Below, one piece after another: positions 12,084 to 62,822 of a stretch of DNA of 64,000 bases. The stretch is from an uncultured Chloroflexia bacterium (GTDB lineage: Bacteria; Chloroflexota; Dehalococcoidia; GIF9; UBA5629): positions 737,375-801,374 of the forward strand of contig CAWGAF010000002.1 in assembly GCA_963820495.1 (NCBI GenBank), written 5' to 3'. The position numbers were made by a program, and so were the translations under genes. The notes beneath the pieces are model-generated. The model made no database searches and was not told the DNA's origin. It saw only the letters and a program-made list of their open reading frames with translations. Each line of letters starts with the position of its first letter. Position 1 is the first letter of the stretch.

Positions 12084-12094
12084 CTGTTTCTACC

Positions 12095-30165: not shown

Positions 30166-30229
30166 AATAATCTCCTTATCTCAATATTTATATATTATTT
30201 TGGGAGATAGTGGTAGAATTTTAGCATAT

Positions 30230-42259: not shown

Positions 42260-42336
42260 GGGCCATTAGCTCAGTTGGTTAGAGCACGGTCCTGATAAGA
42301 CCGGGGTCTGTGGTTCGAATCCACAATGGCCCACCA
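42260..42336 (+). tRNA. tRNA-Ile (anticodon GAU), stand-alone and not in an rRNA operon
   Basis: GGGCCAUUAGCUCAGUUGGUUAGAGCACGGUCCUGAUAAGACCGGGGUCUGUGGUUCGAAUCCACAAUGGCCCACCA. Confidence 0.92.
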
Positions 42337-42803: not shown

Positions 42804-42863
42804 AGCTTGTTCCTTTCTAAGTATTAGTTGCGAAATTTTAATGCTTGATGTTACTGCTGTCAA

Positions 42864-42991
42864 CTCAGTGTAATTTAGAGATTAATGAAAAATATCCTGT
42901 TCAACCCCCTTTATCCCCCAGTCTTGGGGGATTTGGGAATCCGGGGGACTCCCCCAGACCCTCGGCCCCGACTCGTCGGGGCACCACTGAG
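42864..42991. other. GC-rich element with three consecutive G5/C5 hairpins, bracketed by a 7-bp inverted repeat
   Basis: CCCCCAgtctTGGGGG (42915-42930), GGGGGactCCCCC (42943-42955), CCCCGActcgTCGGGG (42966-42981), flanked by CTCAGTG (42864-42870) and CACTGAG (42985-42991). Confidence 0.5.
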
Positions 42992-43032
42992 CAATTCAGA
43001 GCGGTAGCTTAAACAGTTGAATCCATTCTCAG

Positions 43033-46677: not shown

Positions 46678-46681
46678 TCAA

Positions 46682-47521
46682 ATGGCAAGATATGGCTTAT
46701 TGATTGACATGAACAGATGCAATGGCTGCTACGGCTGTTTTTTGGCCTGTAGAGACGAATTCTGTGGCAATGATTATCCACCTTATTCTGCGGCACAGCC
46801 TTACTCAGGGCATTTCTGGATGCGCATTGTTGAGCGTGAACGTGGTGCTTTCCCAAAGGTTAAGATGGCCTACATCCGTATACCCTGTATGCAGTGTGAC
46901 GACCCTATGTGCGTTAAGCAAGCACAGGACAATGCCGTTTACAAACGCCAGGATGGAATCGTCATTATCGACCCCGTAAAAGCTAAAGGGCATAAGGAAA
47001 TACTTTCGTCGTGTCCCTACCGGGTTATCTACTGGAATGAGGAGTTACAACTGCCTCAAAAATGCACTTTTTGTGCTCACTTACTGGACCAGGGGTGGAA
47101 GGAGCCGAGATGCGTTGAGTTTTGTCCCACCAATGCTCTGATTTTTGGTGACCTTGATAATCCTAACAGTGAGATTTCACAGAGGCTAGCCAGTGAAAAG
47201 GCTGAGCCCCTTCGTTCTGAGTTTGGAATGAAGGAGAAGGTGCTGTATCTTAACATGCCCAGGCGATTTATTGCTGGAAGTGTGGTCTTTGGCGATACTG
47301 ATAAATGTGCCGAAAATGTAACGGTGAACCTGATTGGTGATAGTGAACAGAAAACAACTAAAACCAACAATTATGGCGATTTTGAATTTGAAGGTCTTCC
47401 TAAAGATAAGGACTACACTGTGCAGATTAAGCATCGGGGTTATAAGACTAAAGAGCTAAAAACACGCACTAAAATCGACGTTTATCTGGGGGATATATTA
47501 CTGTCGAAAACTGCCAGCTAA
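46682..47521 (+). CDS. Transhydroxylase-like small subunit (beta1): Fe-S domain plus C-terminal CarboxypepD_reg/Ig-like beta-barrel
   Basis: MARYGLLIDMNRCNGCYGCFLAC, CMQCDDPMC, CTFCAHLL...PRCVEFCP. C-terminal ...NYGDFEFEGLPKDKDYTVQI. The ATG at 46682 lies 4 nt after the alpha1 stop. Confidence 0.8.
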   Translation: MARYGLLIDMNRCNGCYGCFLACRDEFCGNDYPPYSAAQPYSGHFWMRIVERERGAFPKVKMAYIRIPCMQCDDPMCVKQAQDNAVYKRQDGIVIIDPVKAKGHKEILSSCPYRVIYWNEELQLPQKCTFCAHLLDQGWKEPRCVEFCPTNALIFGDLDNPNSEISQRLASEKAEPLRSEFGMKEKVLYLNMPRRFIAGSVVFGDTDKCAENVTVNLIGDSEQKTTKTNNYGDFEFEGLPKDKDYTVQIKHRGYKTKELKTRTKIDVYLGDILLSKTAS

Positions 47522-47595
47522 ATCCAAACTTGCTATGTAGCATTTATAAGAGGTGACAGTGGCGGGAGCACCTATTTCAGTAAAGAGGAGATATA

Positions 47596-50121
47596 ATGTT
47601 CGAACAAATTTTGACCCAATGTACTTCGGGTGGGGCTGTCTGGGTACACGTTAAGGATGGGGTGATAACACGGATCCGACCTATAGTCTTTGATGATACA
47701 GACGCACCATCATGGACCATTGACGCAAGGGGAAGACAGTTTACACCCCCTAGGAAAACCTCACTAATGCCGTATATTGTAGCTGAAAGAGCCCGTATTT
47801 ATTCTGAGAACAGGATCAAATATCCTTACAAAAGGGTAGATTTTAGTCCAAAAGGCAAGAGAAATCCCGAGAATAGGGGGAAGTCTGGCTATGAGCGGAT
47901 AAGCTGGGGTGAAGCACTGGATATCGTCGCTGGCGAGATGAAAAGGATTAGGGAGACCTATGGACCAGCTGCCATTACCGCCAGCACGGGGTCTCACCAC
48001 AACTGGGGTTTGTTATTTTATAAGATGGGTCCTTTTGGCAGGTTTTTTAACATGCTTGGTTATACAATGTTACTTGACAACCCTGATAGCTGGGAAGGCT
48101 GGCACTGGGGTGCCATGCATACCTGGGGCTATCACTGGAAATTAGGCATAACCGATAATTTCGATATACTGGACGATGCCTTGAAAAATACCGATCAAGT
48201 AATCATGTGGTCGGTCGATCCTAATACTACCACAGGTTATCCTGGCCAAGACTCTATCATCTGGCGTATCTGGCTAAGGGAGCTTGGCATCAAATTGATA
48301 TTTATCGATCCCTGGTGCAACTTTACCGCCAGCATGCTGGGTGACAAGTGGCTAGCACCGCGTCCTGGCACTGACGCAGCACTGGCAGAAGCTATTGCCT
48401 ATGTGTGGATCAAAGAAGGAACTTATGATAAATGGTTCGTGGAAAATCGTACTGTAGGATTCGATGAGTTTAAAAAACATATTCTCGGTGAGGATGATGG
48501 GGCTCCTCGGACTCCAGGATGGGCAGCAGAGATAACAGGTATTCCCACACGTGATATCACAGCGCTTGCCAGAGAATGGGCAGCAAAGCGGACTATGCTG
48601 GGTTGTGGTGCTATGTTAGGAGTCGCGGGAGCATGTCGGGCTGCTTATGCTACTGAATGGGCAAGGCTTATGGTGCTACTTATCTCAATGCAAGGCTTAG
48701 GCAAGCCCGGCGTCAATATCTGGGGTGGTGCCGCGATGGGTGCACCTTTGGATTTCACCTCGTTCCAGTTTCCAGGATATTCCTCTGCAGGATGGGATGC
48801 ATTTGGACTGGTGGCTAAAAAATCAGCTTTTCCTGAGGGGAACAAGGTTACTCAGAAAGTTTACCGCTTACTCCTTCCCGAGTCTATCTTGAACCCACCA
48901 GTTACCTGGACAGGCGAAGGTTTCTGTGGGCAGTTTCTAGACCAGCAGTTTATACAATATACCTACCCGGAGCCCGGCAGCCCTGAGATTAAGATGCTTT
49001 ACCGCCATGGTGGTTCTTACATCTCCACCATGACTGAAACAGGCAGGTATGCAAAAATGTACCAGAGTCCCAAAATTGAATTCGTAGCCAATCAGGATTG
49101 TCACTGGCAGAGCGAGACGTGCTTCGCCGATATTATATTGCCAGCCAGCACCAATTTCGAACAGAGCGATATATCAGAAATGTCTGCCGCTGGAGGCTAT
49201 GCTGTCAACAAGAGCGGCGCCAACCACCGAGTCATTGTCTACCAGAAAAAGTGCATCGAACCTTTATGGGAATCGAAGCCAGATTGGGACATATACTGTG
49301 AACTTGCCAAGCGGCTAGGTTTTCTTAATGAGTACACCGAAGGGAACTCACGAGAAGATTGGATCAAAAAATTGTTTCATGCCACCTCGCTACCAAAACA
49401 TGTTACTTATGATGATTTTAAGAAAAAAGGATACTTTATCGTCCCCTCCCATTTGGGAGATTACAAGCGTACCGTTTCCAACCGCTGGTTCTATGAAGGT
49501 CGTCCCTGCGAGGTGCCGGACCCTGTGAATCCCTTGATCGGAACTGATAAAGCAGATAAGCTGGCTACCTACAGCGGTAAGATAGAATTTGTATCACAAA
49601 GCCTGCTCAAGCATTTCCCAGATGATAAAGAGAGGCCGCCGATGCCGCGTTATATCCCCAGTTGGGAAGGACATACTACCGAGTTGGCAAAAAAATATCC
49701 GCTTCAACTCATCTCAAGTCATGTGCGCTTTTCCTTTCATACACAGCATGATAATAAGATCCCCTGGCTTGACGAAATTCCAGTACATCGTATAAAAAAG
49801 GATGGGTATGCCTGGTGGCCGATGCGCATACATCTATCTGATGCTGAGCCCCGTGGCATTAGGCATGGAGATATTGTCAAGCTTTATAATGACCGTGGTG
49901 CCGTGCTGGGTATCGCCCAGATTACCGAGCGTGTCAGACCAGGAGTAATCCACTCCTATCAGGCTGGAGCCAAATATGACCCCATCGAGTTGGGCAAACC
50001 AGACAGCATAGATAAAGGGGGATGTGTCAACATACTGACCCCTTCACGGATGGTATCAAAGCACGCTTCAGGAATGGCTAATAACTCTTGTCTGGTAGAA
50101 ATATGTAAGTGGGAGGTATAA
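47596..50121 (+). CDS. Transhydroxylase-like bis-MGD molybdoenzyme, large subunit (alpha2)
   Basis: 841 aa. Aligns with alpha1 end to end by eye: GGAVWVHVKDGVITRIRP, APSWTIDARGRQFTPPRKTS, SHHNWG, NPDSWEGWHWG. Confidence 0.78.
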   Translation: MFEQILTQCTSGGAVWVHVKDGVITRIRPIVFDDTDAPSWTIDARGRQFTPPRKTSLMPYIVAERARIYSENRIKYPYKRVDFSPKGKRNPENRGKSGYERISWGEALDIVAGEMKRIRETYGPAAITASTGSHHNWGLLFYKMGPFGRFFNMLGYTMLLDNPDSWEGWHWGAMHTWGYHWKLGITDNFDILDDALKNTDQVIMWSVDPNTTTGYPGQDSIIWRIWLRELGIKLIFIDPWCNFTASMLGDKWLAPRPGTDAALAEAIAYVWIKEGTYDKWFVENRTVGFDEFKKHILGEDDGAPRTPGWAAEITGIPTRDITALAREWAAKRTMLGCGAMLGVAGACRAAYATEWARLMVLLISMQGLGKPGVNIWGGAAMGAPLDFTSFQFPGYSSAGWDAFGLVAKKSAFPEGNKVTQKVYRLLLPESILNPPVTWTGEGFCGQFLDQQFIQYTYPEPGSPEIKMLYRHGGSYISTMTETGRYAKMYQSPKIEFVANQDCHWQSETCFADIILPASTNFEQSDISEMSAAGGYAVNKSGANHRVIVYQKKCIEPLWESKPDWDIYCELAKRLGFLNEYTEGNSREDWIKKLFHATSLPKHVTYDDFKKKGYFIVPSHLGDYKRTVSNRWFYEGRPCEVPDPVNPLIGTDKADKLATYSGKIEFVSQSLLKHFPDDKERPPMPRYIPSWEGHTTELAKKYPLQLISSHVRFSFHTQHDNKIPWLDEIPVHRIKKDGYAWWPMRIHLSDAEPRGIRHGDIVKLYNDRGAVLGIAQITERVRPGVIHSYQAGAKYDPIELGKPDSIDKGGCVNILTPSRMVSKHASGMANNSCLVEICKWEV

Positions 50122-50125
50122 CAAA

Positions 50126-50956
50126 ATGGCTAGATATGGAATGGTAATAGACGCCACCAAGTGTAGTGGCTGCTACAACTGCTTTTTAGCCTGCAAGGAT
50201 GAGCATTGTGGACACGATTATCCTGGTTATGCCGCAGCACAGCCCATGACAGGACATTTCTGGATGAACCTGTTCGAAAAAGAGAGGGGGCAGTATCCTA
50301 AAGTAAAGATAGCTTATACTCCAGTGCCCTGCATGCATTGCCAGGAGGCAACCTGCATAAAAGTGGCAGAGAACGGAGCTGTGTATCGTCGACCCGATGG
50401 GATTGTCATCATCGACCCAGTGAAGGCAAAAGGACAGAAGCAATTAGTATCCTCCTGTCCTTACCGTGTCATTTACTGGAATGAGGAGAAGAATCTCCCT
50501 CAAAAATGCACACTCTGTGCTCACCTGCTTGACGATGGCTGGAAGGAACCACGTTGCGTAGAGCTCTGTCCTACAGGAGCTCTTGCTTTTGGTGACCTGG
50601 ATGATCCTAAAAGCGAGATAGCCAAACTTGTTGCTTCTGGCAAGACTGAGATACTACATCCCGAATACGGGCTTAAGGAAAGCATTACCTATATTGGCAT
50701 ACCCAAGAAGTTTATTGCCGGTACTGTGGCATACGGTGATACCGACGAATGCGCGGGAAATGCCACGGCTACACTGATAGGTAATAATGGGAAGCAGACG
50801 ACTAAGCCCAGCAACTTCGGTGATTTTGAGTTTGAGGGTTTAGACGATAATTTGGAGTATACCATAAAAATCGAGGCTCCAAAATACAAAGCCCGAGAGT
50901 TCCAGGTAAAAACCCAAAAGGATATTTATCTAGGGTTAATAATGCTGGAGAAGTAA
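50126..50956 (+). CDS. Transhydroxylase-like small Fe-S subunit (beta2)
   Basis: MARYGMVIDATKCSGCYNCFLAC..., with the same cluster motifs and C-terminal beta-barrel as beta1. Confidence 0.8.
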   Translation: MARYGMVIDATKCSGCYNCFLACKDEHCGHDYPGYAAAQPMTGHFWMNLFEKERGQYPKVKIAYTPVPCMHCQEATCIKVAENGAVYRRPDGIVIIDPVKAKGQKQLVSSCPYRVIYWNEEKNLPQKCTLCAHLLDDGWKEPRCVELCPTGALAFGDLDDPKSEIAKLVASGKTEILHPEYGLKESITYIGIPKKFIAGTVAYGDTDECAGNATATLIGNNGKQTTKPSNFGDFEFEGLDDNLEYTIKIEAPKYKAREFQVKTQKDIYLGLIMLEK

Positions 50957-51095: not shown

Positions 51096-53771
51096 CTATA
51101 AAATTTGTTTATCACTTGCTAAAACTCGCTCCAGGCGCAAGCCAGCATCTGCTTTGTAAGGCTTCTTGAATGCTTCGGGATACTTCTTTCTCAGTTCGTA
51201 TAGATTTACTCCTTCAACCTCGACAAGGAAGCTGCTTACAACCATTCCCGTGGCATTCTTGGAAGTTCTGTTATGTGGAGTAATGGTATTAATGGCTCCT
51301 CCTCTATCGAGCTCTCCTGGAACTATGGGGTCATAGCGGGCACCGTGATCGATGTAGACTACTCCGGGCATTATTCTCTCAGTTACGAAGGCACCTCCTA
51401 AGACAGCTCCTCTTTCGTTGTATATCTTAACCACGTCTCCACTTTCAATACCTCTTGCTGCAGCATCTGAGGGATTAATCCATAGAGGCTCATAGTTGTA
51501 TCCATCTGGTCCTTTGACTTTACAAGTAGGTATTTCTCTCGTCCAGGTTATATCATCGTGATTGGCATGAACTCTCCATCTGCCGTGGTTTGACATAATA
51601 AGTAAAGGATATTTCTTAGCTCTTTTACTGGAGAGCCTCTCATCGTGACTCTCTCCTTTTTCAATCCAGTGAGGGACAGGAGGTCTTTCTTTATCATCAG
51701 GGAAATGCTTGGCTAGATTCTGGGCGAAGAACTCTATCTTACCGGACGGGGTCTTTAAAGGATGATTTTCCGGGTCCTCGTAGAAGTCAGTCATTCCAGG
51801 CTTGCGCTTCTTCCATTCTGGGTCGGTGGGCACAACCCAGTAGCCCTTTTTTTCAAGTTCTTCGTAGGTAATCATATCCTTTACCCCTGAAGCTTCAAAG
51901 CCATGTCTTATCAATTCCTCAACAGTCTTACCACCCGTGTATTCTTTCAGTAATCCCAATTTTTCGGCTATCATGCAGACTATTTCGTAGTCGCTCCTGG
52001 ACTCTCCTAAGGGTTCAATGCATTGTCTTTGACGTAAAATAGTGTAAAATTGCCCGCCCATGTGATCTGCTAATATATCCTCCTCCTCAAACTTGGTGTT
52101 AACTGGCAGGACAATATCGGCGAATTGACAATCGTTTTCCAACCAGGGGTGCTGGGCGAGGATAAATTCTATCTTCGGGCTTCTAAGCGCCTTAATGTAG
52201 GAGTTGCTGTGATTCCAGCAGGTTATCCAGCAAGGTGTATCAGTCCATATCATATGTATTTCGGGGCAGCCCTCTGCTGGGTATGTGTATTTAGTGAATT
52301 GATCTTCGACCGGCGCATCTAATAATGTGGTACCATACCAGCTAATTGGCGCATTGAGGATGGCTTCGTGAATAAGGTCCTTAGGAATAAATTGTTTCAC
52401 CTTTTTTACATCTGATGAGAACAGACCTCCGGTATAAGCAGGTACGACGATTGGAAGTATTTTGCCTACGGGCATAGGATTTGTTGACTTTTTTTCAAAA
52501 ATACCCCATTCAATCATTTTGACCTGGTGAACTCCCGGCTTGCCTAATCCCTGCATTGCTAAGAGCAAAACCTCTAACCTGCCAGGCTCGGTAGAATACG
52601 GACTCCTGATGCCAGGGCCACCATTGCCATGTGCTATGCTTGTTCTCTTGGATGCCCATTCCTTGGCAAGCGCTTTAATTGTTGTCTCTGGTATAGCTGT
52701 TTTCGCAGCAGCCCATTTGGGTGTCTTGGGAATGCCATCCTCTTTTCCCAGGACATATTCCTCAAACTTTTCGAAGCCAAAAGTATGTGTGGCTACATAC
52801 TCTTTATCATAAGTTCCTTCGGTAATCCAGACATAAGCTATGGCTAGCTGCAAGGCAGCGTCGGTGTTTGGCCTAATAGGGACCCACTTATCGGCATGGA
52901 CTGCGGCTCCGTAGTTAAAATCTGGGCAGATATAAATGCATTTTATGCCGAGCTCACTAAGCCAGTAGCACACTCGGCTTGCCATTTGCCCATCAAATCC
53001 CCAGGGAGTTGTTTCTGGGTCGCAGCCCCAAAATAAAACCATCTCGGTATTTTCGGCAATGTCAGGCATTATGTTATTTCCGTAACCTGCGTCTGCCGTC
53101 TGGTTCTTTACAAGTTCCTTGTCTCCATAACCTGCAGATGCTGCCTGCTGACCTACTGGTTCCATACCCCAGACATGCTTTGCGCCCCAATACCAGCCCT
53201 CCCAGCTATCTGGATTTCTGGTCTGTAAGGTGTAACCGCCTAGCAGGTTGAGAAGTTTCCTTTGACAACCATGGGGTCCATGAACAGTCTTTGTTTCACC
53301 ATGTCCATCCGACTGGGCAAGTATGGTGTATGATGACCCATATTCTTTTATTAGCCTTTTAATCTCGCCTGTGATTATTTCTAAGGCTTCATCCCAAGAG
53401 ATTCTGATGTATTTACTCTTTCCCCTGTTTTCCACATTCCTATCACCCTTGGGATTCCAGTCAATCCGTTTCAGAGGGTAGAGGATTCGGTTAGGGGAGT
53501 AGACGCGCTTTTTATAGGCTAGACTGTACGGAGCTATTAAGGACTTCATGGTTGGTTCGAGGACTTTTCCACGGGCTTCCATTTTCCAGGGGTTGAAATC
53601 TTCGGGTTTGTATTTCCAGTCATAGTGCAGTGGTCTGATTCTGACTAATTTACCATTTCTAACATCAGCCACTGAGGCATTTGCGTCGGAAAAGTGACCT
53701 ATGAATCCAATCCCGATTGGTAATGATTTTTCCTCACCGGGTCCTATTCCAGTTTTATTGTCTTTTACCAT
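51096..53771 (-). CDS. Divergent transhydroxylase-like bis-MGD molybdoenzyme large subunit (alpha3), with no adjacent beta gene
   Basis: 891 aa. NGKLVRIRP..., NPDSWEGWYWG, an N-terminal extension and an internal insert. No Fe-S Cys motif and no Tat signal. Confidence 0.72.
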   Translation of the reverse strand: MVKDNKTGIGPGEEKSLPIGIGFIGHFSDANASVADVRNGKLVRIRPLHYDWKYKPEDFNPWKMEARGKVLEPTMKSLIAPYSLAYKKRVYSPNRILYPLKRIDWNPKGDRNVENRGKSKYIRISWDEALEIITGEIKRLIKEYGSSYTILAQSDGHGETKTVHGPHGCQRKLLNLLGGYTLQTRNPDSWEGWYWGAKHVWGMEPVGQQAASAGYGDKELVKNQTADAGYGNNIMPDIAENTEMVLFWGCDPETTPWGFDGQMASRVCYWLSELGIKCIYICPDFNYGAAVHADKWVPIRPNTDAALQLAIAYVWITEGTYDKEYVATHTFGFEKFEEYVLGKEDGIPKTPKWAAAKTAIPETTIKALAKEWASKRTSIAHGNGGPGIRSPYSTEPGRLEVLLLAMQGLGKPGVHQVKMIEWGIFEKKSTNPMPVGKILPIVVPAYTGGLFSSDVKKVKQFIPKDLIHEAILNAPISWYGTTLLDAPVEDQFTKYTYPAEGCPEIHMIWTDTPCWITCWNHSNSYIKALRSPKIEFILAQHPWLENDCQFADIVLPVNTKFEEEDILADHMGGQFYTILRQRQCIEPLGESRSDYEIVCMIAEKLGLLKEYTGGKTVEELIRHGFEASGVKDMITYEELEKKGYWVVPTDPEWKKRKPGMTDFYEDPENHPLKTPSGKIEFFAQNLAKHFPDDKERPPVPHWIEKGESHDERLSSKRAKKYPLLIMSNHGRWRVHANHDDITWTREIPTCKVKGPDGYNYEPLWINPSDAAARGIESGDVVKIYNERGAVLGGAFVTERIMPGVVYIDHGARYDPIVPGELDRGGAINTITPHNRTSKNATGMVVSSFLVEVEGVNLYELRKKYPEAFKKPYKADAGLRLERVLASDKQIL

Positions 53772-53815
53772 ATTATTCCCCCTTCGTTACGATATATAAC
53801 ATCAAAATACTATTT

Positions 53816-55282
53816 TTAAAAGCATAGTTTTCCTGGATTCATAATGTTATTAGGGTCGAAAATTTTCTTTACTTTTCTTAAGGCAATAGTGGTTTCAGCG
53901 TCTCTCCGATAAGCCATATCTGCCCAATGTGAGTAGGGTCGAGAGAAAAATGCTCCTCCGGTTGATAAGGCGTTGGAAGCTGCCTCAGATAATTTTTCAA
54001 TTTTATCTTTTTCGACTGGATTATTGGGATCAAAGAATAAATTAAACTCGCAATGGAAGTTAACACCCTGTACTATTGGCTGGATGTAAACCCCTATGTT
54101 CGAAAGTGGGTAGTCGAACTTCTCTGCAATACTATTCATGATACTTACAAGCTCCGAGAGTTTATCGTAAACGGTGATGAAAAATATATCATAGCATGAG
54201 CCCTTATCTCGGAGTTTCCAATAGGGCTCTTCTGATGGTTTGTGTAATGTCTCCAGTATTTTACTTGCTGAGGCTTTGCCGATGGCTTTTAGTGGTTTGA
54301 TTTTTAGAGACTTGGCTATGTCTGTCATAGCCTTTGTTTGGTAATTTACTTTCTCCTCGGGGAAGTATTTGGGACCAGTTATAGTAAAGAAAAGTATCCA
54401 AGGAGGCAAGGTATCCTTTATGCTTTTGTATTTTTGTGGCCATTCCTTAGCAATTATGCGAGCTAGATTGGAGTTATTCAGCACCAAGCAGTCATCAACC
54501 AACCTGCGCCTTATTAACCAGTAGATAAATTCTAACAGGTCATCAAGCTTTGAAGAACCGACCAAGAAAGGTTCCTCAATGCTTGGGGCTCGTTCACATC
54601 TTACTGTTGCCCAGACGACTATGCCCATGGTTCCCTGGGCACCTTGAATAAGTCTGTAGAAATCAGCCTGTATTGGTCCTGCTGCCTCGTTTTGTGCCGC
54701 GCCAGTTTCCCACTGTTCCTTCAGAGAGCCTGGTCCGGCTGCTGAGCCAGTTCTGAACATGTCACCGCTGCCATAAATCACCTCGGTGCAGGCTAGTGGG
54801 TCGGCTATGTCCCAATGGTATCTGGGCATGATTACTGGTTCTCTTTCAAGCAAGCTGCCTACCACTGATTTTGAAGTGCGTGGAAGCAATGGTAGGTTAA
54901 GCCTTAATCCTTCTTTTCCTACTGCCGATATCAACTCGCTAAATGTGACGCCAGGCTCAACCATTACTATCCGGTGCGCAGTATCAATCCTCACGATTTT
55001 ATTCATTCTACTGAGGTCTACTATAACAGTTCCGCCGGTGCTGGGAACAGTATCACCGCGAAAGTGGGGTGAACCTGAGCTTACTGGCACAAGAGGCGTG
55101 AGTGTCTCATTTGCCCAATTAATCAACTTTTGCACCTCATCAGCATTACCGGGCTTTACTACACACCTGGGCATTATGGTATGAACAAAACTTTCGTCTT
55201 CGGAATATTTAGCAAGATCCTCTGGTGCATCGGAGACATTGTCTGCGCCAACGATTTCTATCAAATCCTTTTTTTTAAACAT
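53816..55282 (-). CDS. FAD-binding (PCMH-type) oxidoreductase, GlcD/FAD-linked oxidase family
   Basis: The N-terminus resembles an FAD_binding_4 domain. The C-terminus has the signature KKIFDPNNIMNPGK. Confidence 0.75.
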   Translation of the reverse strand: MFKKKDLIEIVGADNVSDAPEDLAKYSEDESFVHTIMPRCVVKPGNADEVQKLINWANETLTPLVPVSSGSPHFRGDTVPSTGGTVIVDLSRMNKIVRIDTAHRIVMVEPGVTFSELISAVGKEGLRLNLPLLPRTSKSVVGSLLEREPVIMPRYHWDIADPLACTEVIYGSGDMFRTGSAAGPGSLKEQWETGAAQNEAAGPIQADFYRLIQGAQGTMGIVVWATVRCERAPSIEEPFLVGSSKLDDLLEFIYWLIRRRLVDDCLVLNNSNLARIIAKEWPQKYKSIKDTLPPWILFFTITGPKYFPEEKVNYQTKAMTDIAKSLKIKPLKAIGKASASKILETLHKPSEEPYWKLRDKGSCYDIFFITVYDKLSELVSIMNSIAEKFDYPLSNIGVYIQPIVQGVNFHCEFNLFFDPNNPVEKDKIEKLSEAASNALSTGGAFFSRPYSHWADMAYRRDAETTIALRKVKKIFDPNNIMNPGKLCF

Positions 55283-55334
55283 TTTTCACCTCACATTTGA
55301 TTGTGTGCAATTATTAAATGTACGTTTAGCCTGT

Positions 55335-56900
55335 TTATTCTTTTGCCGAGATGTACATAGCAGCCTCAGAGACCCCGTTCGGATCAAATGCCTTCTTAAA
55401 CTTGCGGAGCCATAAATGGTAGTTGCATAGATGTGGCCCCCACTTATCATGTCCCCTATCGCCCCATACGGTAACTGGAGCCGTATAGTGTTTCTCTATA
55501 GCAAGGTTTTCGCACTTGTCCGTATATTCCATTAATGCTCTCCATCCTTCACCTGTGGGGTGAATCTGCACAAGTTGTTCAGCATGCCCAGTATGCCCAT
55601 GTTCGTAAACCGTGGCAAAAATGCATTCTGGGCCTTCATCGCTGCGTATTACCCCTTTTTGTTGATATTCCTTCTTAAATTCCAAGCAATCCAGCATCAT
55701 CTTTGCAGAGGTTGGCAATAGAGCTGAGTCACCTATTGCGCCTAAAAATCTTCCCGAAGCCCGGAATACCTCTCTTACGGGTGCAGTAACCTTGGTGATA
55801 GTCCACATGTATTCTCTTTTAATAGCATCTTTTTCAAAATAACCTAGGAATTCTCCACCGATTTCTGACATAATCTGAGCCAGTACCTTCTCTTTATAAT
55901 TGAATTCTGAATCGCTACTGCTGGATATGATGACCAAAAAGCCAGGTTTCCCTTTGGATTCCTCCCGTAGCTTTGAAAGAAGCTCAGCAGACTCATCAGC
56001 GTTACCTGACAAACCCTCGCTTATCATTGGCCAAGAGAAAATAGTTAGCAGCATCGCGATCTCGCTCTCAGAAATTTTCATTGCTGCCTCAATTAATTTT
56101 TGCCACGAGGGAAATATGGGGCAATGGATGTTGTGGTTCTTCGGTAATTCTTTTAATCTATAGTACGGCGATGAACCTTCTATTTCTGGCTGTGGCGGCC
56201 CGTTCCAGTGATAGATCTTGGTCGCTGCTTTGGTATATATGCCCAATCCGCCCATCACTGTTTGAGGCCCCCTCAAGATACCCCTTAGAGAAGGCCCAGG
56301 TCCATCACCACAGAACCACCCAAGCCCAGAGCCCAGGGTGCCAAGCTTAAGAATCGTGCCGTCGGGCAGAACCCACTCCACAGCTAAAACATTTCTATCA
56401 TTAACGCTGGTGGTAAGCCCACTATGTCCTGTTCCCTGATGTGCTGTAATGGGTAAGGCGCAGGTATTGGAACCGGCGCAAACAATATTGATATTAAAGC
56501 CTCTTTTCATTGTTTCACCCTGGAGCTGGGCGCAAGTAACATAAGGCTCTACTACAGCATACATGCTTTTTTCGTTAATCTCTATAATTCGGTTCATTCT
56601 CCGCATATCTATATGAATGGCATTCTCGTCGAGGCCAAGCGCGCTATAGAATCCCCAGCCATTGGTGATTGCCTTATATCTGACTTGATATTTATTGCAT
56701 ATCTTTACTATTGCCCGAATTTCCTCTGTTTTTTGTGGTAGAAGTATTGCCCCGGACCTGGGCAAAAAAGGTGTATTAGTGAATAATTCAGCGCCCCACT
56801 GGAAAGCATACGCATCCAGTATTGCCGGTTCCTCGGTAATGTATTCAGTTCCTACCACATCCTCCAGGGCATTAAAAGCATCTCTGTTCTTCAAAGCCAT
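55335..56900 (-). CDS. FAD-binding (PCMH/VAO-type) oxidoreductase, divergent subfamily
   Basis: ...AILLPQKTEEIRAIVKICNKY...ITNGWGF...VVEPYVT... Has a paralog at 63043..>64000. Confidence 0.7.
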   Translation of the reverse strand: MALKNRDAFNALEDVVGTEYITEEPAILDAYAFQWGAELFTNTPFLPRSGAILLPQKTEEIRAIVKICNKYQVRYKAITNGWGFYSALGLDENAIHIDMRRMNRIIEINEKSMYAVVEPYVTCAQLQGETMKRGFNINIVCAGSNTCALPITAHQGTGHSGLTTSVNDRNVLAVEWVLPDGTILKLGTLGSGLGWFCGDGPGPSLRGILRGPQTVMGGLGIYTKAATKIYHWNGPPQPEIEGSSPYYRLKELPKNHNIHCPIFPSWQKLIEAAMKISESEIAMLLTIFSWPMISEGLSGNADESAELLSKLREESKGKPGFLVIISSSSDSEFNYKEKVLAQIMSEIGGEFLGYFEKDAIKREYMWTITKVTAPVREVFRASGRFLGAIGDSALLPTSAKMMLDCLEFKKEYQQKGVIRSDEGPECIFATVYEHGHTGHAEQLVQIHPTGEGWRALMEYTDKCENLAIEKHYTAPVTVWGDRGHDKWGPHLCNYHLWLRKFKKAFDPNGVSEAAMYISAKE

Positions 56901-56916
56901 TTCTAAAGTCCTCCTT

Positions 56917-58203
56917 CTATTTCTGCGTTGATTCTTCTAAGAGTTCTACAACATCGAGAACCTTAAGATTATCCCCACCCAGTTCTTTAGCAGCGTCCTT
57001 AAAGCTCCTGACACACCACGGACAGGCAGTAACCAGCGCTTCAGCGCCAGTGTCCTTAGCTTCTTTCAGTCTCTCTATAGCAGTCCACATATTGAAATCA
57101 GGATAAGCGTCTACTACTCCTCCACCAGCACCACAGCACCACGTGTATTCTTTGATCCTAGACATCTCAATAAACTTTAATTCTGGAATGCTTTTGAGTA
57201 TATTCCTCGGTGGTTCGTAAATTCCATGGGTGCCCCGTCTGAATATCTTTTTAGGTTCGTGTAGAGTACGCCAGTTTGGCTCCATCTTTATCGTGCCTTG
57301 CCAGTGTATCCATGGTTCTCCTAGCCTACCTAGGTGACAGGGGTCATGATAGGTGACCTTTGTTTTTACTGCCTTGATGGGCTTTAGTTTACCTTCTTTT
57401 ATCAGGCGGTCGAGGTATTCAGTTATATGCAATACTTCCACATCGCCCTTCATGCCAATTTTATCATACAGTACCTTGAAGGCGTGATAGCAATCAGAAC
57501 AGCTTGTCACCACTGTTTTAACTCCGGCTGTTCTCAGCATTTCAATATTGTTTTCGGCATACTTGGTCAACTCGCCCAGATAGCCTAAATCATAAGCCCG
57601 ACCTCCACAGCAAGTTTCGTCTTTTCCTGCAATACCAAAATTAACACCAGCCTTTGTTAAGAGATTTACTGCACCTCTAACGGCCGGCCATAGTTCGCTG
57701 TCAAAGCTATAACGGCAGCCAGCATGATAATAGACGTCGACTTTATCCTCTGTGATATGCTTTAAATCGATTCCCTCAGCCCATTTCCCTCGCTCCGCTT
57801 TGGGTTTTTGTAGCATATTATCTTCTTTCCTCAGTCCATCAATAACGGTCATGTGAATGGGGTGCAGCTGACCATCTTCAACACATTTAACTCTAAATTC
57901 ATATAATGGTTGTAAAACTTCTATATCCATACCGTATTTACAGGAGATATCACAGGCGCCACACATCTGGCATTGATAAATCATGTCCAGTAATTTATCA
58001 CTGTATTCGATCCTACCATCGGTCATTGAGAGAGCTGTAATCATTCTTCCACCACCTGCATATGCATGAAATAAGTATCTGCTTATACTCGGACAAGAAT
58101 TGGAATATTTTTGCCCGCTTATTCTATACTGTGGTATGAATTTGCAGTTTGAACATCGAGTACATTGGGTCATATATTCTCGATAATCCTTAAGCATTGG
58201 CAC
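56917..58203 (-). CDS. (Fe-S)-binding protein, GlcF/HdrD-like, with two 4Fe-4S motifs and two CCG domains
   Basis: CTRCSNCKFIP...CPS, CQMCGACDISC, ...ETCCGG..., ...TWCCGAGGG... Confidence 0.8.
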   Translation of the reverse strand: MPMLKDYREYMTQCTRCSNCKFIPQYRISGQKYSNSCPSISRYLFHAYAGGGRMITALSMTDGRIEYSDKLLDMIYQCQMCGACDISCKYGMDIEVLQPLYEFRVKCVEDGQLHPIHMTVIDGLRKEDNMLQKPKAERGKWAEGIDLKHITEDKVDVYYHAGCRYSFDSELWPAVRGAVNLLTKAGVNFGIAGKDETCCGGRAYDLGYLGELTKYAENNIEMLRTAGVKTVVTSCSDCYHAFKVLYDKIGMKGDVEVLHITEYLDRLIKEGKLKPIKAVKTKVTYHDPCHLGRLGEPWIHWQGTIKMEPNWRTLHEPKKIFRRGTHGIYEPPRNILKSIPELKFIEMSRIKEYTWCCGAGGGVVDAYPDFNMWTAIERLKEAKDTGAEALVTACPWCVRSFKDAAKELGGDNLKVLDVVELLEESTQK

Positions 58204-58223
58204 ACCTCCTTATAATTTGCTTT

Positions 58224-59015
58224 TTATATTAGTCCTGATTCCTTGAGTTTTAGAGCCAAATTCTCACCCATTTCCTCGCCGGTTTTACCTTCCACAAACT
58301 CACACCTCATTTCTTTTTTGGGTATAAATAGGCTTAGAAGTCTACTCTTTGCCGTTTTGGGAAGCTGAATATCAAGACTTTCAGTATTCCATACCGTAAT
58401 CGGCTTTTTTTGAGCCGCAACCATCTCCTGTATAGTTGCAGACCTTAGCTCACCCACTTCATTACTTACTGTAACTAAAACAGGCGAAGACGTTTCTACT
58501 ACTTCATAGCCGTCTGGCACTATCCGTTGAACTCTAACCTTGTTATCACTATGTACTTCTATTGCACGGGCTATAGTAATGCTGCTAATTCCTAATATCT
58601 CCGCGATACCTGAACCTACAACACCAGCATTTGAGTCTGCGGCTTCTCTGCCAGCAAGAATTAAGTCATATTTGCCTATCTTTTTAATGGCAGCAGCAAG
58701 TATAGAAGCAGTGGAATAACTATCGAGGTCTACTAAAACATTATCCTCAACTAAAATCAGCTCATCGGCACCAACTGCTAAGGACTTTCTCAATACCGCA
58801 CGGGACAAATTTCGCCCTATGGTTAGCACACTTATTTTGCCCTCGTGAGCTGCTTTGATACGAATGGCTGCTTCTAGAGCGTTTTCATCAAAAGGGCTTA
58901 TGACCGGTGGCACACCTGTAAGTATGATATGTCTACCTTCGTTATCTACCTTGTAAACCGAAGTCGGTGCCTCTGGGTCTGGTACTTGCTTCAGACAAAC
59001 AACGATATTTATCAT
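58224..59015 (-). CDS. Electron transfer flavoprotein beta-subunit-like protein (EtfB), with no EtfA gene nearby
   Basis: MINIVVCLKQVPDPE...PFDENALEAA...DLILAGREAADSNAG. I prefer the ATG at 59015 over the TTG at 59021. Confidence 0.8.
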   Translation of the reverse strand: MINIVVCLKQVPDPEAPTSVYKVDNEGRHIILTGVPPVISPFDENALEAAIRIKAAHEGKISVLTIGRNLSRAVLRKSLAVGADELILVEDNVLVDLDSYSTASILAAAIKKIGKYDLILAGREAADSNAGVVGSGIAEILGISSITIARAIEVHSDNKVRVQRIVPDGYEVVETSSPVLVTVSNEVGELRSATIQEMVAAQKKPITVWNTESLDIQLPKTAKSRLLSLFIPKKEMRCEFVEGKTGEEMGENLALKLKESGLI

Positions 59016-59484
59016 TATCAACTATTCCTTCCCGGGCAACAGGTTCTTTTACGGAAACAAGTCCTAAAGTATCAATAATTTTCGTTATAAATTCTCACTG
59101 TTTTTCACTGATGTTGAACAAGGTTACTTGCGACCTGTTCCGAAACACATTTTTGTGCTTACCTGCCTACTTTTTTTATCCAGAACCTGACATCTACGGA
59201 GCAATTGTCTTAGTACAAGTCTTGTTCTTATATATCATTCAACCCTGGCATGAAACTGTAGGCCAGAGGCAGGGTTATATTCCCTTCGGAATGTTTTGGG
59301 GTATTTCTTTCTCAGTTTGCATCAATACTCTCTCGACTAGACCAGTTTAAATGTTCTGTAGAATAGTCTGGCCTTTTGTGCAGGAGAACGCTCGTTCCTT
59401 CTTTATTTCTCAAATTGCAATGGTGAGAAATTTCTAATTTCAAATTAAGCTGAGGATTAGCTGATATATGTTAAATTATGTTTC

Positions 59485-60192
59485 CTATCCGCCCAGAAAT
59501 GATTCGCGCACAATCTGGTTATCCATTAATTCTTTTGTTTTACCTTCAAGAGTAATTTGGCCCACTGTTAGTACATAGAGAAGTTCGGTGACACTGAAAG
59601 CTAGTCCAGCATTTTGCTCTACAAGTAGAACACTGATTCCATCTTTGTTTATTGCTCCAATTACATCGACTAGACTTTGAACTACTAATGGAGCTAGTCC
59701 TAAAGACGGTTCATCCATAAGAAGCAGCTTTGGTTTAGCCATCAGGCCTCTACCAATTGCTAACATCTGCTGCTCACCACCGCTTAAAGTACTAGCACGT
59801 TGATTGTGTCTTTGACCTAGTATTGGGAAAAGCTGCAGGATTCTGTCCAGATCCTTCTTTATGCCGTCTTTATCTTTCCTTAAATAGGAACCTGTTTTAA
59901 TATTCTGCATAACACTCATGTAAGGGAAAAGCCTTCGATGTTCTGGGACATGGACAATGCCCATCCTCACGATTTCGTGAGTTGCCATGCTATCTATCTT
60001 CTTATTTTGGAACCAGATTTCGCCAGCACTTATTGGCACTAGTCCAGACACAGCTCTCATGATAGTACTTTTACCAGCTCCGTTAGCGCCGATAAGGCCT
60101 GTTACTGATCCATCAGGAACATCTATATTGATACCCTTTATCGCTTCAGCTTTGCCGTAGTGAACCTTTACATTTTTAAGACTAAGCAGCAT
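59485..60192 (-). CDS. livF: Liv-type ABC transporter ATP-binding protein (LivF-like)
   Basis: GANGAGKST, LSGGEQQML, LLMDEPSLGLAP. Confidence 0.88.
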   Translation of the reverse strand: MLLSLKNVKVHYGKAEAIKGINIDVPDGSVTGLIGANGAGKSTIMRAVSGLVPISAGEIWFQNKKIDSMATHEIVRMGIVHVPEHRRLFPYMSVMQNIKTGSYLRKDKDGIKKDLDRILQLFPILGQRHNQRASTLSGGEQQMLAIGRGLMAKPKLLLMDEPSLGLAPLVVQSLVDVIGAINKDGISVLLVEQNAGLAFSVTELLYVLTVGQITLEGKTKELMDNQIVRESFLGG

Positions 60193-60946
60193 GTTTTTCG
60201 ACTCCGAGGTAAGCCTGTATTACTTCCTTGTTTTGTTGCATCTCAGCAGGTGTTCCTCTAGCGATCTCCGTACCGAAGTTAAGCACCAATATTCTATCAC
60301 ATACGTTCATGACTGCTCTCATGTTATGCTCGATCAGTATGACAGATGTACCTCGAGATCTAATTTTACCAATTAGCTCAAGAGCCATATCGATCTCCGT
60401 AGGATTCATACCTGCGCAAGGCTCATCAAGCAACAATATTCTGGGGTCAGCAGCTAGAGCTATGGCAACACCAAGCATCTTCTGGTGTCCATGAGCTAAG
60501 TTGCGAGCAAGTTCATCTTTCCTGTCATCCAATCCTACGAATTGCAGGATATTTGTTGCGTAATCCCAGGTGCTCTTAAATTTCGTACGATATCTAGAGG
60601 TGTTAAATAGTGATTCCCAGAAGCCGATTCTGGAGTGTAAACGAGATGCAACCGCTACATTCTGCAGGACGGTAAATTCATGGAATATCCGGTCTAGCTG
60701 GAAAGTACGGGCTACTCCAAGCTCAGCTATACTATGTGGTCCTTTGCCGGTAATATCTTCACCTTCAAATATTACCTCCCCACTTGTTGGTTTAAGGAAA
60801 CCTGTTATTAAATTGAAAAGGGTAGTTTTCCCTGAACCGTTGGGGCCGATTACGCCAACTATCTCGTTTGCATCGACACTCAAATTAATATTATTGACGG
60901 CTCGCAGGCCCCTAAAGTGCTTGGTTATCCCTTTGGTTTCAAGCAT
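60182..60946 (-). CDS. livG: Liv-type ABC transporter ATP-binding protein (LivG-like)
   Basis: GPNGSGKTT, LLLDEPCAGMNP, NKEVIQAYLG. Confidence 0.88.
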   Translation of the reverse strand: MLETKGITKHFRGLRAVNNINLSVDANEIVGVIGPNGSGKTTLFNLITGFLKPTSGEVIFEGEDITGKGPHSIAELGVARTFQLDRIFHEFTVLQNVAVASRLHSRIGFWESLFNTSRYRTKFKSTWDYATNILQFVGLDDRKDELARNLAHGHQKMLGVAIALAADPRILLLDEPCAGMNPTEIDMALELIGKIRSRGTSVILIEHNMRAVMNVCDRILVLNFGTEIARGTPAEMQQNKEVIQAYLGVEKHAA

Positions 60947-61922
60947 TTTCAGCCTTTCTCCTGTAAATCTTTCTTATTTGGGCTTTAACCACATCGGGCA
61001 AAGTTACAAGACCGCCTCGAAGTAAGAAGATCACGATAAACAATACTGCTACAAAAACAAATGGCTGGTATTCCTTTACTACACGGAATGCCTCAGGAAC
61101 AATTGTTAAAACAATAGCTCCAATAATGGCACCAGCGAATCTCTTTCCTCCTCCTACTATCACATATACCATAATATAGAGGCTAGGAAAAAGCCCAAAT
61201 GTGTCAGGAGTCAGAACGGCGTTATAATGAGCATAGAAACTCCCAGCTAAACCTGCGAAAAAGCAACCTATACAAAAAATAATCGCTTTATGGTTAGCAA
61301 TATTAGTACCTATACTGGCGGCTAGTGATTCATCTTGGGCGATGGATTTGAAGGTCATACCGATATAGGAGCGTTCGATGCCATAAAGAAACAGAATCGT
61401 AATTAATGCTAGGATCAGGACAAAATAACTATACGGGAGCTTGGTAATGAATTCAATGGTTATAAGACCAGGGATAGAGATAGTGTCTAGAGGAGGGATG
61501 CCCATTAGCCCAGAGGTGCCTTCGGTCATTCCTCTCCACTCTGTGAAGACCAGGGAAATAAGCTCACCGAAAAATAAAGTGAGCATGGCGAGATATACTG
61601 TCCTAACTCTGGTTATAGGGAATGCGATAATTGCCGCTACAGCCATGGCTACTATTGCACCTAATATTAAAGCGCCATAAACGGGCACGCCAAACTTCAT
61701 TGCAAGTACAGCAGATGTATAAGCTCCTATGCTCATGAAACCTGCATGGCCGAGAGAAATCTGGCCTGTGGTAGTTATGGCACGGAGACTTATTGCCAAT
61801 ATAACGTTGATTCCGCAAAGGATAAAGACATGTAAGTAATATTCACTGCTAGTAAGAAATATGGGTATTAGAAAAATGACTATTACCAGGGCAACGTAGC
61901 TTAATATCTTACCTAATTTCAT
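60939..61922 (-). CDS. livM: Liv-type ABC permease (LivM-like)
   Basis: GQISLGHAGF. Polytopic membrane protein. Confidence 0.86.
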   Translation of the reverse strand: MKLGKILSYVALVIVIFLIPIFLTSSEYYLHVFILCGINVILAISLRAITTTGQISLGHAGFMSIGAYTSAVLAMKFGVPVYGALILGAIVAMAVAAIIAFPITRVRTVYLAMLTLFFGELISLVFTEWRGMTEGTSGLMGIPPLDTISIPGLITIEFITKLPYSYFVLILALITILFLYGIERSYIGMTFKSIAQDESLAASIGTNIANHKAIIFCIGCFFAGLAGSFYAHYNAVLTPDTFGLFPSLYIMVYVIVGGGKRFAGAIIGAIVLTIVPEAFRVVKEYQPFVFVAVLFIVIFLLRGGLVTLPDVVKAQIRKIYRRKAENA

Positions 61923-61967
61923 AGTCTGCGCTTTGCTTGGTTTTTAAATATAACTGCCTCGACTATT

Positions 61968-62822
61968 TTAGTCGTAGCCAAGAAGTCCTCTTGGCCTGAT
62001 AATCAGTATAATTATAATAAGAGCAAAACCAATTATGTAAGCAATTGTGGTGCTGGCAAAAATGGGGACGACACCGTCTATCAGACCTATTATTATCCCG
62101 CCGACAACGGCACCTGGAATACTCCCTAACCCTCCTAGGATTATTACGGCGATTCCCTTTTCCATTGCGAACCCGCCCATTGCCGGCTCTATTTGGAATA
62201 TGGCACCCATTAGTGCACCTGCTATAGCAGCCAAGGCACAACCTATAGCCATAGCGATTGCCGAAATACGGTTAACGTTTATTCCTTGTAAGGCTGCTCC
62301 ATCTAGGTCTTGGGCAATAGCAACCATTGCTTGGCCTGTTTTTGTCGTTCGAATGAAGATAAATAAAATAACCGTCAAAATAATACCAACCCACACGGCT
62401 AGCATCCTTTCCCAAGGAAGTCTAATTCCCCCCATGGTCATAATACCAGGAAGAAATTCAGGGATGTATTTTTCCTGAGTACCAAAAAAAACTGTAGCTA
62501 TGGTTTGGAGGAGCAAAATGAGGCCGATAGCAACAATGATGCTGTTTTCTATATCCCCACGGAATCGACGAAAGAAAAACCTCTCAAGAGCTATACCTAC
62601 CAGTCCTAAGGCGATTGCAGATATCACAAAGGCTGCCAAAATAGGTAAACCGAATCCGACGCATATGAAATACGCGACGTAAGCACCGAGCATATATATC
62701 TCGCCATGCGCGAACTGAACAACACGCATAAGGCTAAAAACAAGGCTTAATCCTAGGGCGACAAGCACATAAATAAAGCCCATCATTATTCCATTAGCTA
62801 TACTCTGTATTATGCCTTCCAT
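61968..62822 (-). CDS. livH: Liv-type ABC permease (LivH-like)
   Basis: ...VVQFAHGEIYMLGAY... Polytopic membrane protein. Confidence 0.86.
   Translation of the reverse strand: MEGIIQSIANGIMMGFIYVLVALGLSLVFSLMRVVQFAHGEIYMLGAYVAYFICVGFGLPILAAFVISAIALGLVGIALERFFFRRFRGDIENSIIVAIGLILLLQTIATVFFGTQEKYIPEFLPGIMTMGGIRLPWERMLAVWVGIILTVILFIFIRTTKTGQAMVAIAQDLDGAALQGINVNRISAIAMAIGCALAAIAGALMGAIFQIEPAMGGFAMEKGIAVIILGGLGSIPGAVVGGIIIGLIDGVVPIFASTTIAYIIGFALIIIILIIRPRGLLGYD

Follow-up and report, generated by a model that had tools for sequence, protein, structure and literature searches.

The subject of this analysis is a group of five genes in a 64,000-nucleotide stretch of the 1.34-Mb contig CAWGAF010000002.1 (the window), from an uncultured Chloroflexia bacterium whose nearest relatives are metagenome-assembled genomes (MAGs) of Dehalococcoidales. 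The five genes, all co-oriented on the minus strand between 51096 and 59015, encode a molybdenum (Mo) subunit of the transhydroxylase family, two flavoproteins of the vanillyl-alcohol oxidase/p-cresol methylhydroxylase (VAO/PCMH) type, an iron-sulfur (Fe-S) protein and the beta subunit of an electron-transferring flavoprotein (ETF):

51096..53771, minus strand: alpha3, an 891-amino-acid (aa) bis-molybdopterin guanine dinucleotide (bis-MGD) subunit of the AthL family, in a divergent "alpha3-like" subfamily (Pfam; PDB 4v4c_A)
53816..55282, minus strand: FAD_D, a 488-aa VAO/PCMH-type flavoprotein, likely the catalytic subunit (Pfam; family profile)
55335..56900, minus strand: FAD_E, a 521-aa second VAO/PCMH-type flavoprotein (Pfam; family profile)
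56917..58203, minus strand: CCG protein, HdrD/GlcF/TfrB-like, with two [4Fe-4S] and two CCG clusters (Pfam; Cys motifs)
58224..59015, minus strand: orphan EtfB, full-length, with no EtfA gene (Pfam ETF)

Below, the CCG protein, FAD_E (E) and FAD_D (D) are together called the trio, and the trio with EtfB the quartet.

Reading from EtfB to alpha3, the open reading frames (ORFs) are separated by 20, 16, 52 and 44 bp, and a Shine-Dalgarno sequence rated good precedes each of them. The layout given by an initial annotation of this DNA, with gaps of 16-52 bp, thus stood in every coordinate and strand, and Pfam confirmed the domains that it had assigned to all five proteins. With NCBIfam, none of the five was assigned to a model above the cutoff. 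That annotation had also named transcript data for an independent promoter or terminator between FAD_D and alpha3 as evidence against its proposal; we found no terminator-like hairpin in any junction of the unit, including 53772-53815, and the counts of terminator and promoter signals were both at the level of shuffled sequence. All five proteins lack predicted transmembrane (TM) segments, and a twin-arginine (Tat) motif is absent from alpha3; it follows that all five should be cytoplasmic. Export of alpha3, which would rule out a complex, was rejected on the same two grounds.

Among solved structures, the closest relatives of both flavoproteins are VAO/PCMH enzymes and not 2-hydroxyacid dehydrogenases. 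Pfam recognizes FAD_binding_4 and FAD-oxidase_C in FAD_D, and FAD_binding_4 only in FAD_E, the C-terminal half of which is unrecognized. With family profiles, FAD_D matched phenol-oxidizing VAO enzymes of the 8s7n type (1e-35) and PCMH (1e-33, over the full length), compared to 1e-23 for LctD/D-lactate dehydrogenase (D-LDH), and FAD_E matched 7pbg best (4e-29), with 8s7n and PCMH (3e-26) also among its best matches. The 8s7n enzyme comes from a study on the oxidation of phenolics by flavoenzymes (PMC7617285). Matches of the two profiles to LctD, D-LDH and glycolate oxidase ranged from 1e-23 to 1e-16 and were 10-12 orders of magnitude weaker than those to VAO/PCMH. The NCBIfam GlcD model (TIGR00387), the cutoff of which is 567.9 bits, scored 67.6 (FAD_D) and 53.6. 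FAD_E, with 521 aa, is also unlike the ~350-aa GlcE. Thus, the set does not belong to GlcDEF; what it has in common with GlcDEF, D-LDH/CCG and fused YdiJ-type enzymes is an architecture, in which a flavoprotein is combined with a second FAD_binding_4 protein and a GlcF-like protein with Fer4_8 and two CCG domains. The "PCMH/VAO-type" label of the initial annotation, as opposed to a GlcD-type one, is therefore the one that the profiles favor.

The same profiles bear on the explanation that alpha3 and its neighbors are unrelated, in which the quartet would be a lactate-, glycolate- or 2-hydroxyacid-type dehydrogenase of general metabolism and the adjacency would come from the clustering of catabolic genes. 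We consider this explanation highly improbable, since both profiles prefer VAO/PCMH, GlcD falls far below its cutoff and FAD_E is not GlcE-like, and since the module repeatedly adjoins transhydroxylase genes (at least six arrangements, three taxa), with the statistics given below. The points on its side are that homologues are labeled "glycolate oxidase" by JGI (1795 FAD_E homologues carry at best this name or "FAD-binding oxidoreductase", both automatic), that distant trios lie with TRAP transporters and a GlcG/HbpS-like gene, and that lactate dehydrogenases of the LctD-EtfAB type pair a FAD_binding_4 enzyme with an ETF (matches to PDB 7qh2).

Compared to PCMH itself, the locus likewise has two paralogous large flavoprotein subunits, and the PCMH of Geobacter metallireducens reportedly exists as two isoforms, alpha-alpha'. 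In PCMH there is a cytochrome c subunit, whereas here an HdrD-like Fe-S protein and the orphan EtfB stand in its place, and no cytochrome gene was found in the cluster with Pfam. The positions of Tyr/Tyr/Arg, which we take to be the phenolate-binding triad of VAO, read Arg75/Ser447/Arg448 in FAD_D, and the cap domains can barely be aligned. In the alignment to 8s7n, one invariant His of FAD_D falls on a His-His pair, presumably the position of the covalent-FAD histidine in VAO-type enzymes.

The translation of the CCG protein (Fer4_8 and two CCG domains in Pfam) shows both CCG motifs intact and two Cys motifs of the ferredoxin kind, which makes it a member of the HdrD/TfrB/GlcF type; the best NCBIfam model was TfrB, at 160 bits against a cutoff of 385, and the true start is probably ATG 58197. 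EtfB matches the Pfam ETF domain at 8e-34, and a start at ATG 59015 (263 aa) fits the length of its homologues better than one at TTG 59021. Its nearest solved structures are of the bifurcating type, CarD (4e-43) and A. fermentans EtfB (3e-32), which places it in the lineage found in the ETF-dependent complexes LctBCD, CarCDE and Bcd-EtfAB, with CarD nearest. To an EtfB of locus L081 that is paired with an EtfA, its identity is 50%. No EtfA was found within the 64-kb window by Pfam on all ORFs of at least 150 aa or by tblastn, and a tblastn search for a hidden or degraded copy, including the 463-bp gap upstream of EtfB, gave a best E of 0.09. Thus, although EtfB is full-length, the window encodes no EtfAB heterodimer, as the initial annotation had said in describing an EtfB-only arrangement.

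This arrangement is conserved at other loci. We compared the window with homologous regions, labeled L001-L103, that were fetched from MAGs and from often short metagenome contigs or other fragments (a metagenome scan with FAD_E returned three loci). In four independent contexts, an orphan EtfB gene is immediately followed by the trio: the window, L097 (81% identity to the window copy), L099-L101 (67%) and L102/L103 (63%). L103 has a divergent TRAP (tripartite ATP-independent periplasmic) permease upstream of EtfB, with no EtfA and no Mo gene. By this recurrence, EtfB(no EtfA)-CCG-FAD-FAD is a conserved module, found with and without Mo genes. An EtfB-only subunit is not known to us from any characterized enzyme.

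Beta, trio and ETF genes were mapped by tblastn on 90 loci, later 101, and the maps rest on the tblastn thresholds. The trio had only two internal orders, CCG-E-D or D-CCG-E, across more than 20 loci, and it is because of this that we regard it as a fixed unit, as expected of a complex. Transhydroxylase-like genes adjoin the trio in at least six gene orders, in Dehalococcoidales, Chloroflexia and Actinomycetota. L088 has CCG-E-D-alpha3 and lacks EtfB, though it is the closest orthologous cluster; L097 has LivHMGF-alpha3-EtfB-CCG; L095/96 has two trios in tandem (alpha-D-CCG-E-CCG-E-D); L024, from Chloroflexia, has CoA-transferase-D-CCG-E-alpha; and L099 and L101 have beta-EtfB-CCG-E-D. In the Actinomycetota loci L081-L083, the distance between a TetR-regulated trio and the one or two alpha-beta pairs in its neighborhood is 0.1-3 kb (as trio-beta-alpha, or with the trio near alpha-beta); L081 and L083 also have EtfB-EtfA and a CCG Fe-S protein with five TM segments nearby (in L082 a truncated EtfB alone is visible, at the locus edge). 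In L007, L009 and L013, one strand carries CoA-transferase-D-CCG-E-AbfD-like-Fe-ADH-hydrolase-alpha (Fe-ADH, iron-containing alcohol dehydrogenase), with UbiX next in L007 and L013, and the other strand carries a second trio, an aldehyde dehydrogenase and UbiD. These gene contents suggest a route from hydroxybenzoate to succinic semialdehyde or 4-hydroxybutyrate. The three clusters, each ~22 kb long, come from Dehalococcoidales MAGs; their AbfD-like protein is also HpaB-like, and the hydrolase is an alpha/beta-hydrolase.

Other trios have no Mo gene in their flanks. In L084 the trio lies with aldehyde:ferredoxin oxidoreductase (AFOR), a TRAP transporter and a GlcG-like gene, in L085 with a TRAP transporter, in L090 as SDR-EtfA-EtfB-trio (SDR, short-chain dehydrogenase/reductase), in L091-L093 with convergent EtfAB, a CCG Fe-S protein and a FAD_binding_2 protein, and in L102/L103 with EtfB. 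In L089, genes 84% (FAD_E) and 78% (FAD_D) identical to those of the window are followed by other genes, with no alpha3 downstream.

By a rough statistical estimate, the link exceeds chance: a transhydroxylase-family gene was present at 7 of 12 distinct trio-centered loci (binomial p = 5e-5, with an assumed background of 10%), and in the Mo-centered sample the trio occurred only in the clade of alpha3 that is defined below (Fisher p = 3e-4; 0.02 with three related genomes collapsed). The neighbors across loci include genes for UbiD/UbiX, CoA-transferase, 4-hydroxybutyryl-CoA-dehydratase-like proteins and reductases of the old yellow enzyme (OYE) type, together with regulators of the MarR, TetR and sigma-54 kinds and importers of the Liv or TRAP type, a set that by annotation is typical of anaerobic aromatic catabolism. 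Thus, we conclude from the gene neighborhoods that the recurrent functional link of the flavo/Fe-S module with transhydroxylase-type enzymes is real.

The Mo subunit is related to the large subunit of the Pelobacter acidigallici transhydroxylase AthL/BthL (PDB 4v4c), with a match to chain 4v4c_A at 4.5e-135. In Pfam, alpha3 has Molybdopterin (PF00384, 94.9 bits), Molydop_binding (PF01568, 69.8 bits) and AhtL-like_1st (PF21423, 37.2 bits; cutoff 27), and no Pfam match for a Molybdop_Fe4S4 domain or N-terminal Cys cluster. It resembles AthL in its bis-MGD fold, in an AthL-type N-terminal domain without the FS0 cluster and in its expected cytoplasmic location. It is 37% identical to AthL and, in a joint alignment, 42-44% identical to two further alpha subunits of the window:

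44167..50956, plus strand: alpha1-beta1 and alpha2-beta2, two canonical pairs of the transhydroxylase type, convergent with alpha3 (Pfam)

The alignment bears out the motif NPDSWEGW(H/Y)WG that the initial annotation had seen in all three, with NPDSWEGWYWG in alpha3 and NPDSWEGWHWG in alpha1 and alpha2. Absence of the MGD-binding and active-site residues had been named there as evidence against the proposal; by alignment to 4v4c_A, alpha3 retains His144, Asp174 and Ser175, of which, going by the AthL structure, Ser175 is the Mo ligand and Asp174 and His144 are catalytic. In contrast, alpha3 has Gly and Pro where AthL has Tyr152 and Arg153, and around Tyr404, where the alignment is one column off, the residues of five clade members are Y, F, Y, C and G. 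The variation at these pocket positions suggests a different substrate or reaction.

The closest orthologues of alpha3 are those of L088 (88% identity) and L097 (82%), and with ~100 public-genome relatives at 53-86% identity it makes up the alpha3-like subfamily, separate from AthL, to which the resorcinol hydroxylase RhLS is related. Compared to AthL-type proteins, the aligned members have a ~22-aa N-terminal extension (missing in L024), a ~35-aa C-terminal extension and two deletions. Seven Cys (250, 268, 282, 514, 518, 548 and 750 in alpha3 numbering, with 518 invariant) are conserved across the subfamily and absent in AthL, alpha1 and alpha2; they could form an extra metal or redox site, or serve a different chemistry. 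The idea that they are a private set replacing the clusters of a beta subunit was rejected, since the members that have a beta carry the same Cys, and thus they do not explain the loss of beta.

Differing further from AthL/BthL, alpha3 has flavoproteins in its predicted operon and no adjacent beta of the BthL type, which has three [4Fe-4S] clusters and a CarboxypepD_reg-like domain; Pfam on the operon ORFs found no beta gene. The statement of the initial annotation that alpha3, unlike alpha1 and alpha2, has no beta beside it consequently holds for its transcription unit. In a neighbor-joining tree of 109 alpha sequences, made with no bootstrap and with RhL and DbhL left out, alpha3 falls in a clade with L088, L001-L004 and L016, the sister group of which consists of L024, L008, L034, L007, L009 and L013. 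None of the members of the clade has an adjacent beta according to the tblastn maps. Outside the clade, beta lies immediately downstream of 41 of 86 alpha3-like genes, and 25 have no beta; beta-less alphas are thus common there too, mostly without special neighbors. We conclude that, as tree and maps have it, the beta-less state is an inherited feature of the clade and not a local accident. The annotation would have been contradicted by orthologues that always pair with a beta and never with flavo/Fe-S genes, and the closest ones, in L088 and L097, adjoin the same flavo/Fe-S genes as alpha3 does. Among cultured organisms, Sporomusa acidovorans has an alpha3-like alpha-beta pair, for which the only hint from the neighborhood is a sigma-54 activator.

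We considered that alpha3 might not be truly beta-less but might borrow beta1, beta2 or a distant beta in trans. Such a beta is close at hand: beta2 (50126-50956, plus strand), which like beta1 has Fer4_11 and CarboxypepD_reg domains in Pfam, ends 140 bp from the alpha3 stop, although on the opposite strand and in another operon, and L088 has a beta2 orthologue (77%) convergent downstream. Moreover, clusters of Dehalococcoidales often have more alphas than betas (five and two in L005), and in L024 a beta lies 3.3 kb downstream. However, in L007, L009 and L013 the 10 kb to either side contain no beta, and at 42-44% identity of alpha3 to alpha1 and alpha2 a compatible interface would have to have persisted. 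Borrowing, which would be compatible with the interpretation that we favor, is in our judgment possible but somewhat doubtful.

The interpretation that we favor, and to which we give about an even chance, is that the genes form a catabolic operon for two separate enzymes of one phenolic pathway: a soluble VAO-type dehydrogenase, which has four subunits and is autonomous, and a transhydroxylase-type enzyme that has no beta. In the first enzyme, two paralogous VAO/PCMH-type flavoproteins would bind the substrate and hold FAD, the HdrD-like subunit would carry two [4Fe-4S] and two CCG clusters, and the orphan EtfB would probably add a flavin or nucleotide site at which electrons leave or enter. 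The second, alpha3, would be cytoplasmic and would probably hydroxylate, dehydroxylate or relocate a ring hydroxyl with no dedicated beta, and the Liv-type ABC importer upstream probably takes up the substrate. The sequences show the structure of the genes, their domains, and modules that are conserved and repeatedly linked; from these we infer transcription as an operon, the subunit composition, the class of substrate and a metabolic link rather than a fixed complex.

We favor pathway partners over subunits of one complex because the order within the trio is rigid while the Mo gene moves around it, because EtfB is optional and the trio occurs with both alpha-only and alpha-beta forms, and because trio and Mo gene are each often found without the other. 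Taken together, a Mo gene without a fixed place, an optional EtfB and catabolic neighbors are typical of catabolic clusters. The occurrence of the trio or quartet on its own with TRAP transporters, or with EtfAB and a five-TM CCG protein, is the reason for considering it autonomous and ETF-linked. In L081 (1878-5732), L083 (1201-5045) and L091 (14574-18163), EtfA/EtfB genes followed by one for a 670-aa Fer4 and CCG protein lie beside the trio; the ETF order is EtfB-EtfA in L081 and L083 and EtfA-EtfB in L091, and about five TM helices were predicted for the L081 copy of the 670-aa protein. EtfAB plus this protein resembles an EtfAB:quinone oxidoreductase, which points to ETF as the usual electron outlet of the trio. 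By comparison with these membrane-linked ETF systems, the window trio has EtfB only beside it, with no EtfA and no membrane partner.

Several points weigh against this interpretation. The window quartet lacks a membrane anchor, and alpha3 is the one obvious electron acceptor that it has in cis, which a purely metabolic link leaves unexplained. The tight co-orientation and the 44-bp gap to alpha3 would fit a complex as well. "Phenolic" is a candidate class of substrate, and with Arg/Ser/Arg in the place of the triad a simple, classical 4-alkylphenol is probably not the substrate of FAD_D. Finally, the sample of loci is small, partly redundant and drawn from fragmented MAGs and metagenome contigs.

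If these points are given more weight, the proteins might instead form a dedicated redox partnership, in which the HdrD-like subunit would dock on beta-less alpha3 and relay electrons between the VAO flavins/EtfB and Mo. Water-dependent oxidation by the flavoproteins would then be coupled to reductive dehydroxylation at Mo, or the reverse, in a stable or transient complex. We think this unlikely in either form, though much of the locus is consistent with it: adjacent betas are missing from the clade, the trio shares an operon with six of its members and the tightest adjacency of Mo gene and trio falls within it, the gap between the two is at most ~50 bp in the window, L088 and L095/96 and ~280 bp in L024, no terminator separates them in the window, all five proteins are soluble and cytoplasmic by prediction, the two-[4Fe-4S] ferredoxin domain of the CCG protein could fill the role of beta, and a closed electron loop would suit a non-respiring fermenter. 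The comparison of loci argues the other way. Trios of the same type stand beside alpha-beta pairs (L081-L083, L099 and L101), where no substitute for beta is needed; the eight loci with trio or quartet and no Mo gene in the flanks (L084, L085, L090-L093, L102 and L103), as well as L089, show the module without alpha3; the Mo gene is upstream, downstream or three genes away depending on the genome; and the 25 other beta-less alpha3-like genes have no flavo/Fe-S neighbor. In addition, AthL reportedly lacks the FS0 cluster (Messerschmidt et al. 2004), and the transhydroxylase reaction reportedly needs no net electron transfer; because of this, the loss of beta need not demand a new partner. Thus, of the Mo-flavoprotein redox complex that the initial annotation had put forward, the co-occurrence survives, since it recurs with the closest orthologues, and the single complex is weakened, since the trio is also found with alpha-beta pairs or alone. 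Its further suggestion, that the flavo/Fe-S proteins replace beta as the electron partner, is weakened by the trios beside alpha-beta pairs and by the absence of EtfB from L088.

A more specific version of coupling, which we regard as distinctly unlikely, is a split transhydroxylase, in which the five proteins would make up a closed electron loop for the redox-neutral rearrangement of phenolic hydroxyls. Here the VAO/PCMH flavoproteins would add a hydroxyl from water in a two-electron oxidation, the electrons would pass through the HdrD-like subunit, with the flavin of EtfB as a gate or as a tap to NAD(H)/ferredoxin, to Mo, and the Mo subunit would remove or relocate another hydroxyl in a two-electron reduction. 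Such a system would use no tetrahydroxybenzene co-substrate, unlike the Pelobacter enzyme, and no respiratory chain.

To our knowledge, the only characterized members of the transhydroxylase family are the Pelobacter enzyme and resorcinol hydroxylase. The present comparison defines a large, divergent alpha3-like subfamily with a beta-less clade within it and, linked to that subfamily, a module of four genes that is widespread and has no name (the orphan EtfB, the HdrD-like Fe-S protein and the two flavoproteins of the VAO type). Transhydroxylase-family genes have repeatedly been noted in Dehalococcoidia and subsurface anaerobes as markers of polyphenol degradation, and papers on Dehalococcoidia report multiple "pyrogallol hydroxytransferase" genes, not a link to flavo/Fe-S genes (PMC3971608, PMC4959651). 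Literature searches that combined transhydroxylase with ETF or glycolate oxidase returned nothing relevant. Accordingly, both the gene association and the EtfB-only flavo/Fe-S module are undescribed in the literature searched, as the initial annotation had supposed of the combination, although each component comes from a known superfamily. If the proteins are redox-coupled, they would explain water-dependent hydroxylation and dehydroxylation of plant and humic phenolics by non-respiring fermenters, and would be the first enzyme with an EtfB-only subunit; a split transhydroxylase, if true, would be a new class of Mo-flavo-Fe/S enzyme. If they are pathway partners only, the cluster still indicates that phenolic carbon in sediments and aquifers has an anaerobic route not yet characterized.

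Upstream of the five genes, the minus-strand series continues as follows:

59022..59484, minus strand: intergenic region of 463 bp upstream of EtfB, the sole long gap in the minus-strand gene series
59485..62822, minus strand: LivF-LivG-LivM-LivH-type ABC importer, upstream and co-oriented (Pfam ABC_tran twice, BPD_transp_2 twice)
63043..64000, minus strand: second FAD_E-like paralogue, C-terminal part, which leaves the window at its end (tblastn)

The 463-bp region is likely the promoter or regulatory region of the five-gene unit; an Rfam search upstream of the operon for a molybdenum-cofactor (Moco) or other riboswitch gave no match. A Liv importer of the same type also precedes alpha3-EtfB-CCG in L097. 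The ORF at 63043-63957 has no Pfam domains, and the 63043-64000 fragment matches by tblastn the C-terminal half of FAD_E-type genes (73% in L099, 81% in L088). Its counterpart directly precedes the CCG gene in L099 and L088, and trios occur in tandem in L095/96; we therefore think that a second trio, and perhaps another alpha too, probably lies just past position 64000.

On the other side of the unit, alpha2 matches AthL over the full length (2e-261), and alpha2-beta2 (47596-50956, plus strand) is a close AthL/BthL orthologue; the genome thus probably encodes a genuine pyrogallol-phloroglucinol enzyme beside the divergent alpha3. The beta1 ORF, as listed, overlaps the end of alpha1 by 59 bp (46619-46677), and its true start is probably further downstream. 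Before alpha1, at 42372-43779 on the minus strand, are a PNPOx-like flavoprotein and a 248-aa ORF (weak TIGR04076), a homologue of which (33%) adjoins an alpha3-like gene in L057. Two tRNA genes, at 38238-38319 (minus strand) and 42260-42333 (plus strand), flank an IS3-type transposase pair (40117-41222) just upstream of the transhydroxylase cluster, with no difference in GC content; this segment may be the edge of an acquired catabolic island.

Elsewhere in the window, 4658-13996 holds a second Liv-type ABC system, two Peripla_BP_6 proteins, a MarR regulator and a 633-aa AMP-forming ligase, which by family looks like a set for aromatic-acid uptake and CoA activation, and 1494-4339 holds two flavodoxin-ferredoxin fusion proteins and a DUF169 protein. 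SmpB (30128-30685, plus strand) is directly followed by the tmRNA gene (30710-31060, 154.6 bits), a housekeeping pair from which we take the region to be chromosomal.

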